Position numbers and translations under genes: made by a program
The notes under the pieces: generated by a model
What the model was told of the DNA's origin: nothing
Databases searched by the model: none
The model's input: only the letters and a program-made list of their open reading frames with translations
Part shown: positions 49,208 to 50,970 of the stretch, in pieces
How positions within the stretch are numbered: position 1 is the stretch's first letter
Layout: each line of letters starts with the position of its first letter
DNA from: Escherichia phage phiWec177
Length of the DNA stretch: 64,000 bases
Sequence record: LC739532.1
Reading direction: 5' to 3' (one strand)

Positions 49208-49245
49208 ACACCGCAGCGGGGCTAAATAGCCCCAGATACCTGAAC

Positions 49246-49270
49246 AGCCCCTATTTAAAGGGGCTTTTTT
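49246..49270 (+). terminator. rho-independent terminator
   Basis: AGCCCCT-ATTTAA-AGGGGCT then TTTTTT; preceded by second hairpin CGGGGCTAAATAGCCCCAG. Confidence 0.6.
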
Positions 49271-49446
49271 ACGTCTATTGAATTCTTATACAATCCCTTT
49301 CCCTCACCTTCCTAGAATCTTATCAGACCTTAAAAGCAATAACTCTATAGTCTACTCTATAACCTCTTATCAAATCAACTAAGTGGCATTGTTACCAATC
49401 CCTTAAATATAAGCCCATAACCCGAAAGGGAAGGGCAATCCCTTAA

Positions 49447-49526
49447 ACGCTCTATAACGCTCTATAACGCTCTATAACGCTCTATAACGCTCTATAACGC
49501 TCTATAACGCTCTATAACGCTCTATA
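49447..49526. repeat. tandem repeat, 8 copies of 10-bp unit ACGCTCTATA
   Basis: Perfect head-to-tail copies read directly. Confidence 0.9.
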
Positions 49527-49715
49527 ACGCTCTATAACAGCCTTATCAACCTAACTTAAGCAATCATATTAACCCACTCTAAAAAGCCCTTTATAGAGCT
49601 TCTCAGAGCCTTAAAAGAATCTTATAAGGGTGTAAGCTTTATCGTCTCGTTAGTATTCTTGTGAATATCTAAAAAGGACTTGTTAGTGTCTTAAAAGTAT
49701 GTTATAGGGGCTATG

Positions 49716-49800
49716 AAGTTACGTAAAAGTAGCTTAAAAGTAGCTTAAAAGTTACGTAAATGCTAGCCCCCTTAACATTTTCTTAACAATTTCTTAACAA
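49716..49800. repeat. nested direct repeats (GTTACGTAAAA / GTAGCTTAAAA x2 / CTTAACAATTT x3)
   Basis: AGTTACGTAAAAGTAGCTTAAAAGTAGCTTAAAAGTTACGTAAA then CTTAACATTTTCTTAACAATTTCTTAACAA. Confidence 0.8.
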
Positions 49801-49826
49801 TCCCTACATAGTTATACTTTTAAGGC

Positions 49827-50340
49827 ACTTGTTAGCAACTTGTTAGCCCCTTGTTAAATCTCTGTTAAGACCACGTAAAAGCCTTGTAAGAGTCTTTGAC
49901 ATAGCCTTAAAAGCTCCTGTAAAGCCCTATAAAGAGCTATCCATACAGTTGAGGGGTAAATACTAGGAAGAGACTTAAAAGAGCTTATAAAGAGCTATAG
50001 AGAGCTTTTAAGAGGTATGTTTAAGGAATCACTAGGGGTTGGTAACAATACCAATTAAGAGGGAAAGGGAACGATAAGACCAGAGATAGTGACCATGTTA
50101 ATAGCTTGTTAAAAAGATTAAACACTTGTTAGGAACTTGTTAATTATCTTAACAAAATAACTCTTTAAAATTAACTTGTTAGCTCTTGTTAGGCATCTGT
50201 TAAGATTCTGTAAAGACTATTCAGCACTTGTTAGAAAACTGTTACAACCTTGTTAGTTCTGTTAAGAAACTGTTAAGACCTTTGAAGAGTTGTTAAGAAG
50301 ATGTTAGAACTGTTAAGAGATTGTTAAGGATATTTTAAAA
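49827..50340. repeat. iteron-like array of YTGTTAR motifs
   Basis: More than 25 copies of CTTGTTAG / CTGTTAAG / TTGTTAAG, densest at 50100-50340, plus AAAGAGCT repeats around 49930-50010. Confidence 0.8.
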
Positions 50341-50935
50341 TTTTGCAAAGTACTTGTAAGGGAGCTGTTAAGGGCTACCAAGCAGATATACATCTTCTAC
50401 AGATATTTTTGAGTTCCTTCAAAGACCCTAAAAAATGACTTGATAGTCCTATTTTATAAAAATTTTAAGATTCTGAATAATTACCTATACAGTCTTTTAA
50501 AAATACAGGTAGAAACAGGCTTATAAGATACCTTGTTAGTACCGTGTTAGACCTTGTGAGATAAGGCCTGTAAAGATATTCCTGTTAAGTTTGTTAAAAC
50601 AGTCTATATAGAGGCTTAGTAATACCTAGTGAACACCTATAGAGGGTATCATAGCTGACATAGAGATTAAGAGGTGTATAGGAGCTTCTAAGGGGGTGTA
50701 GAGAGATGGTTAAGGTGATTGTATAGGCTGTTAAGAAGGTTTGTTAGAGGGCTAGTTAGAAGGGTTATACAGAGGGCTATTAAGACCACTAGATAGTTAC
50801 TAAGATACTATATAGTACTATATAACTATATATATAGAGAGTAAGATTAAGAAGGCTGTTAAGAAGGATAGATATTTTATTCACATATGATGGTGACCCA
50901 GAGGTTGGGACAACCGATAAAATTTTATAAAAATT

Positions 50936-50966
50936 AAAAAGCCCCCAATTAAGGAGGCTCTTAAGA
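50936..50966 (-). terminator. terminator-like hairpin for minus-strand block
   Basis: Minus-strand AGCCTCC-TTAATT-GGGGGCT then T-run, just downstream of stop of 50971-51651. Confidence 0.5.
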
Positions 50967-50970
50967 TATT

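Follow-up and report, generated by a model that had tools for sequence, protein, structure and literature searches.

A probable concatemer junction with a direct terminal repeat and phased TGTTA motif arrays in the gene-free region of Escherichia phage phiWec177

The 64 kb stretch of the phiWec177 genome analysed here (the window) contains a gap of 1.76 kb (49208–50970) in which no open reading frame longer than 34 aa begins, and the longest stop-free run within it, 59 codons, falls at the 5th percentile of shuffled sequences (shuffle mean 80). The genes on the two sides converge on the gap, so that an earlier preliminary description of the region as an ORF-free interval at a convergent junction is borne out. 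The gene to the left (48959–49207) is rightwards-transcribed and codes for an 82-aa protein that matches PHROG 4559 (3.7e-47) and is a homologue of Felix O1 ORF23; the gene to the right (50971–51651) is leftwards-transcribed and belongs to PHROG 4330. Six flanking proteins were compared with Pfam and PHROG; none has a Pfam hit, and all of the PHROG matches are to families without an assigned function.

Both transcription units end within the gap. A conserved stem-loop (49218–49233, plus strand), kept in eight genomes, and a rho-independent-type terminator identified by a terminator scan, with a stem at 49246–49265 followed by a T run (to 49271, plus strand), together close the rightwards unit at 49218–49271, and a second terminator (50937–50962, minus strand), from the same type of scan, closes the leftwards unit. 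Both are already annotated as terminators in the AYO145A and Mordin records. An Rfam scan of 48900–51100 at E-values up to 1 reveals nothing above threshold; a Phe-leader match lying over the terminator was rejected, as it scores 26 bits where the gathering threshold is 55. Predicted sigma-70 promoters are no more frequent in the junction than expected (7 sites, compared with 6.0±2.5 in shuffles).

The gap is widely shared. It is 100% identical over 49208–50970 to phage phiWec172 (LC739530.1, Felixounavirus), and approximately 200 Felix O1-like genomes have an 80–92% identical counterpart across most of its length. In nearly all of those genomes the counterpart is unannotated, carries repeat_region or terminator features, or is filled with tiny hypothetical ORFs. 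The Felix O1 counterpart lies at 12310–13927, between ORF23 and ORF24.

With a probability of roughly 85%, the gap represents the concatemer junction of a phage of the Felix O1 type, at which the linear virion DNA starts and stops. When placed by homology, a direct terminal repeat (DTR) of 614 bp is predicted at 49766–50379, with boundaries uncertain by a few bases. The left genome end is predicted to start at 49766 (...TGCTA|GCCCCCTTAACA) and the right genome end, by the same comparison, to stop at 50379 (...GTTAAGGGCTACC|AAGCAGATATACA); both are assigned via relatives that are 84–88% identical to phiWec177 within the DTR. The 82-aa gene would then be the last before the right physical end, and the gene at 50971–51651 the first inside the left physical end and read toward it, such that the genes on both sides of the junction are transcribed outward, toward the physical ends.

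Several sets of records place the ends at these positions. Exact terminal duplications are present in the records of NBEco005 (651 bp), NBEco004 (628 bp), and SeKF_63 (613 bp), all with 100% identity between copies, and GE_vB_7A has a 581-bp terminal duplication with copies that are 99.5% identical. All four of these Felixounavirus duplications, taken as deposited from records that do not state how they were obtained, map to window positions 49766/49772 on the left and 50377/50379 on the right. The ZX4221 record opens at 49766 and the pEP20 record at 50379, the record of mistaenkt (Suspvirus) opens at the left DTR boundary, and these two positions within the region recur as the start or stop of many independent records. 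Two Kolesnikvirus records, those of the Hafnia phage SPARTY and the Erwinia phage vEam_PM_21, have exact DTRs of 439 bp and 438 bp respectively, and both boundaries in each align with the boundaries in the window.

Physical evidence has been reported for UAB_Phi87, another member of Felixounavirus, for which fixed ends were demonstrated by Bal31 digestion and a 608-bp DTR by run-off sequencing (Bardina et al. 2016, PMC4837284). The published repeat (supplementary sequence, PMC4837284) begins AACATTTTCTTAACAA and finishes GGGCTACCAA; in the UAB_Phi87 record it occupies 608 bp, the same length as the homologous interval in the window (49774–50381). SpeI terminal fragments predicted in silico for UAB_Phi87 (4437 bp and 2739 bp) match the published sizes (4322 bp and 2819 bp) only approximately, and this is a weak consistency check rather than proof. 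Phage Pr103Blw, also of Felixounavirus, has a 581-bp DTR determined from sequencing reads by PhageTerm (PMC8303462), and short terminal repeats had already been inferred for Felix O1 itself (PMC3185647). Among five Felixounavirus sources the boundaries agree to within 8 bp on the left and 4 bp on the right. Of the options raised in the preliminary description, the genome-end or packaging one is thus favoured, with 49766–50379 homologous both to the duplicated ends of the four records and to the UAB_Phi87 DTR. For Felix O1-like phages the DTR is already known, and since it has been published with its sequence, this core finding is not new.

Within the 64 kb window the region matches nothing but itself, and the single copy of the DTR is as expected of a circularised assembly. 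The repeat would be present once at each junction in replicating concatemers and twice, at both ends, in virion DNA.

The DTR is bordered by two unique non-coding flanks. The left flank (49208–49765) adjoins the right genome end, is on the left side of the repeat in concatemeric DNA, and carries CTCTATA motifs (TATAGAG on the minus strand); its mean conservation among 20 genomes is 0.84 with window-specific inserts excluded. The right flank (50380–50970) adjoins the left genome end, carries plus-strand TATAGAG and, in the motif map, further TGTTAR motifs, and is conserved more strongly than the rest of the gap, with a mean of 0.90; it is 93–96% identical to UAB_Phi87 and AYO145A and 71–79% identical across genera, with cross-genus values computed segment-wise by blastn. 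It contains AT-rich palindromes (ATTTTATAAAAATT) at 50450–50466 and 50919–50934 and a TATA-repeat block at 50805–50838, which had been noted before as an AT-rich block near 50810–50840, and three AT-rich blocks are invariant (50449–50467, 50808–50825, and 50920–50931). Mooglevirus and Suspvirus phages keep the whole non-coding block at 69–80% identity over its full length, and it is retained equally to or better than most of the adjoining genes, which in some cases can hardly be aligned across genera. The Kolesnikvirus phages SPARTY and vEam_PM_21 are more distant, and blastn matches only the TGTTAAG array.

Some parts of the gap are clearly unstable (small palindromic inserts, a run of TA, and a 10-bp tandem array), which would suit a non-functional spacer in which repeat-prone DNA had simply remained between the convergent terminators. 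That reading is nonetheless very improbable, as the remaining sequence is 69–88% identical across three genera, is retained more completely than the adjoining genes, and includes invariant blocks of 10–20 nt. The conserved flanks, approximately 1.1 kb in all, exceed what a cleavage site needs, so further functions are likely.

The most conspicuous feature of the junction is a set of short TGTTA motifs. The heptamer YTGTTAR is present 28 times in the gap where ~2 are expected, compared with 74 times in the remaining 62.2 kb, an enrichment of ~13-fold. In k-mer statistics the related words CTTGTTA (12 copies, 0.17 expected, p = 1e-18) and TGTTAAG (11 copies, 0.45 expected, p = 3e-12) are also strongly over-represented. 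The preliminary description reported more than 25 YTGTTAR motifs in both orientations, concentrated at 50100–50340; the number and the clustering are correct (15 of the 28 are located there), but the orientations are very uneven, with 25 on the plus strand and three on the minus strand.

Three arrays are evident in the motif map. Close to the left DTR boundary there are three minus-strand TGTTAA motifs with 11-bp spacing (49772–49800), followed by four plus-strand YTGTTAR motifs at exact 11-bp spacing (49829–49868; repeat family D2). The third and largest array (50095–50371, plus strand) contains 17 TGTTA(A/G/C) motifs and extends up to the right DTR boundary; it has a best period of 10.3 bp (R = 0.85), a value not attained in 2000 random sets, and this phasing places its sites on one face of the helix. 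Within the array, core positions are conserved at 0.93–0.97, compared with 0.79–0.82 for neighbouring positions (MWU p of ~1e-8 to 1e-9; 20 genomes, three genera). Arrays thus abut both boundaries of the DTR, on the minus strand at the left and on the plus strand at the right, and the DTR edges are inverted repeats of one another, with arms at 49772–49809 and 50301–50338.

The boundaries themselves have well conserved boxes. At the left, the box TA|GCCCCCTTAACA and the minus-strand TGTTAA motifs that follow it (49764–49800) are conserved at 0.92–0.97, and the Kolesnikvirus left boundary is homologous, with the form ta|GCC(C/A)C...TTAACAA. At the right, the plus-strand 17-mer TACC|AAGCAGATATACA (TACCAAGCAGATATACA; 50376–50392) does not vary among the 20 aligned genomes of three genera and is likely a cleavage-site box. 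The Kolesnikvirus right boundary has TTTTGCAAAG, then 35 nt, and then the cut, directly after which is AAGCAGATATACA in SPARTY and TAAGTAGATATACA in vEam_PM_21. A nick-site pattern common to both boundaries (TGCTWG-N8-TTAACA) was considered and dropped, as its frequency was at chance level and it failed to recover the two boundaries.

In phages with DTR genomes each concatemer junction has one copy of the repeat, with DNA synthesis supplying the second (PMC10438801). By analogy with T7, the Felix O1-like terminase may cut or nick at the two boundaries, with the repeat duplicated by DNA synthesis, such that each packaged genome would carry both copies. The TGTTA arrays are most likely binding sites of the packaging machinery, with the phased TGTTA(A/G) motifs a probable platform for its recognition component; TACC|AAGCAGATATACA would provide the cleavage-site context, the boundary boxes would define the cuts, and staggered nicks, one on each strand, would agree with arrays that face opposite ways at the two boundaries. 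A more specific proposal, held at somewhat short of even odds, is that the arrays and TACC|AAGCAGATATACA constitute the recognition apparatus of a putative Ounavirinae terminase DNA-recognition subunit, that their inverted layout sets opposite-strand staggered nicks ~610 bp apart, and that the apparatus is conserved from Felixounavirus to Kolesnikvirus despite divergence of the rest of the junction. No small terminase subunit was recognised in Felix O1 (PMC3185647), and the large subunit is not among the seven ORFs of at least 400 aa in the window. The terminase of UAB_Phi87 is situated in a Felix O1-like DTR group in the terminase tree published for that phage (PMC4837284).

The closest known system is that of UAB_Phi87, which is 86% identical over the DTR and has the same convergent genes around it and the same motif content, although it lacks both the nine-copy ACGCTCTATA expansion of the window and its two 24-bp palindromic inserts. 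The available text of the UAB_Phi87 publication gives the DTR sequence and does not describe arrays, phasing, or boundary boxes (PMC4837284). The searchable literature on Felix O1-like phages likewise contains no description of phased arrays, their inverted layout, or boundary boxes shared across genera, so that the motif architecture appears to be undescribed and seems a modest descriptive addition.

The junctions of T7 and T3 are similar in that the ends are fixed and the repeat is short, exact, and present once in the concatemer (PMC10438801, PMC4837284). The T7 junction uses a pause of the phage RNA polymerase (PMC3276506), whereas nothing suggests one here. The T7 repeat is 160 bp, and the DTR described here is about four times longer; the phage is moreover a myovirus with an unrelated terminase lineage, and in contrast to T7 and T3 its end genes point outward and the promoters predicted in the junction are no better than chance. 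Arrays of short repeats also border the T7 terminal repeat. Repeated, phased motifs are present as well in the terminase recognition sites of other phages, including the R sites of lambda cosB and SPP1 pacL/pacR. The resemblance to cosB and pac would lie in short repeated motifs on one face of the helix beside a cleavage site, but here the copies are many more (17 in ~280 bp, 28 in all), and arrays are located at both boundaries in opposite orientation.

The repeats could instead, or in addition, be iterons of a replication origin, with an initiator from the phage or its host binding the phased TGTTAR motifs and melting the AT-rich blocks. Short phased repeats, the invariant AT-rich blocks of the right flank, and an extent of conserved non-coding DNA longer than a cut site requires are all compatible with this, and the secondary origins of T7 adjoin its genome ends, such that origin and end functions can coexist. 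An origin, which might still lie in the flanks, is fairly unlikely, however. Direct repeats and AT-rich blocks are shared with iteron-type origins, but the core motif is only 5–7 bp, none of the six flanking proteins is initiator-like in Pfam and PHROG scans, and the primase-helicase gene is 32 kb distant. The single DnaA-box match in the gap is not conserved (relatives carry TTGTTCACA at that position), and the gap contains no IHF consensus. GC skew, which had been suggested as a check on the origin option, tracks gene orientation in the window with no independent inflection, and the option has no specific support. The arrays also coincide with physical genome ends, unlike those of iteron-type origins; the densest are inside the DTR and abut its boundaries, for which packaging accounts directly. 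Chi sites were also searched for, with no match in the gap.

The position of the arrays within the DTR, and hence at both ends of virion DNA, raises another reading, that they bind an end-acting protein other than terminase, with a role in end protection, ejection control, or pairing of the repeats for concatemer recombination. The gene beside the right end is homologous to Felix O1 ORF23, the product of which (Gp23) was detected in the virion proteome (PMC3185647), and both ends finish with TGTTAAGGG on the strand that runs 3′ toward the end. This shared terminal TGTTAAGGG is not retained in Kolesnikvirus, though, and the literature searched has no experimental hint of staged ejection in the Felix O1-like group. 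A role of this kind in place of packaging is judged improbable, and binding by the packaging machinery is preferred.

The options first offered also included a partition site; such a centromere-like site, in a plasmid-like phage, has only a general resemblance of repeat arrays in its favour. All matches to the region are in virulent Ounavirinae with linear, DTR-ended genomes, and nothing Par-like is encoded by the six neighbouring genes or the seven largest ORFs; with the physical ends mapped, the partition reading is effectively refuted.

Most of the related records inspected, like that of phiWec172, are opened at an arbitrary point, with the 1.7 kb either unannotated or carrying spurious mini-ORFs, and consequently misstate how long the genome is and how its genes are ordered with respect to the physical ends. 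In a phage group with no recognised small terminase subunit, the motif set makes the question of terminase recognition testable, and the conserved phased motifs and invariant cut-site box are concrete targets for finding the DNA-recognition factor. The motifs and the box would also delimit the minimal fragment for packageable or transducing plasmids of these therapeutic and diagnostic phages. For phage Bas63 a system for editing across the genome has been established (10.1101/2024.10.10.617714).

Other repeats in the gap are more variable. The most regular is a perfect tandem array of ACGCTCTATA, which the preliminary description had given as eight copies at 49447–49526; the array is indeed perfect, but it contains nine copies and extends over 49447–49536 (plus strand; TRF reports 9.3 copies at 49446–49538 with 100% matches). 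Sister phage phiWec174 has 11 copies, and all other relatives examined have one or two; apart from array length, phiWec174 differs from the window in this region only by one extra TA dinucleotide. Conservation across 49450–49509, inside the array, is 0.05. The array is a slippage-prone, lineage-specific expansion of an ancestral two-copy motif with no conserved role, and its earlier interpretation as iterons is wrong. Its unit is expanded from a member of the CTCTATA family, a word not listed in the preliminary description. CTCTATA/TATAGAG is present in 11 copies compared with 0.07 expected (p = 5e-21), with TATAGAG on the minus strand to the left of 49600 and on the plus strand to the right of 50600. 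The hypervariable 10-bp array could act as a strain marker.

Two 24-bp palindromic inserts form a single inverted-repeat family (I8). One, TAAGTGGCATTGTTACCAATCCCT (49380–49403, plus strand), has a conservation of 0.43–0.48 and is missing from the same site in most relatives in the alignment; the other, TAATTGGTATTGTTACCAACCCCT (50034–50057, minus strand), has a conservation of 0.36, and among eight aligned genomes only the window and Andreotti have an insert there. Just outside the left DTR boundary TRF identifies 11-bp repeats of the type AAGTWRCKTAA (49716–49760, plus strand; conservation 0.63), with a copy number that differs between relatives by alignment indels. In the middle of the DTR (49968–50018, plus strand) TRF and the motif map show AAGAGCT / CTTAAAAG repeats with a period of 10–11 bp, the AAGAGCT copies having been noted previously.

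The non-coding block, a repeat-rich gap between convergent genes (49208–50970), contains a 24-bp palindromic unit, TAATTGGTATTGTTACCAATCCCT, at 49380–49403 and 50034–50057, and within the window this unit is confined to that region. It is also present in UAB_Phi87 (Felixounavirus) and SUSP2 (Suspvirus), with its position within the block differing between genomes, is adjoined by CAATCCC words, and behaves like a small insertion/deletion element. In the relatives UAB_Phi87, Mordin and SUSP2, a second small palindromic insert (about GATAGAATCTATCGAATCC) occupies spacers or the loops of hairpins within the homologous non-coding block; it is absent from the window. 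The sister phages phiWec172 and phiWec174 differ within the region at two places only, the array of tandem 10-bp copies (49447–49536) and a run of TA dinucleotides at window position 50826, where the difference is a single unit.

The 82-aa gene that ends at the edge of the non-coding block (48959–49207) is a homologue of Felix O1 ORF23, the product of which has been found in purified virions (PMC3185647). The final gene ahead of the right genome end is thus predicted to encode a virion protein. A 75-aa gene at 51817–52044 has 98.7% DNA identity to Suspvirus SUSP2, whereas its neighbors are 41–78% identical over their length, a disparity in sequence similarity that suggests recent exchange of this gene between genera.

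The Dam/MboI-type site is totally avoided across the window (1–64000), with zero GATC sites on both strands compared to an expectation of 189±14 from dinucleotide-preserving shuffles. Elsewhere in the window are genes coding for a DUF2828/DUF7788 protein (58155–59570) and a nicotinamide phosphoribosyltransferase-like protein (33020–34801). Ro60-like and NAD-salvage genes have been discussed for the Felixounavirus Bas63 (10.1101/2024.10.10.617714), and these two proteins may be their counterparts.
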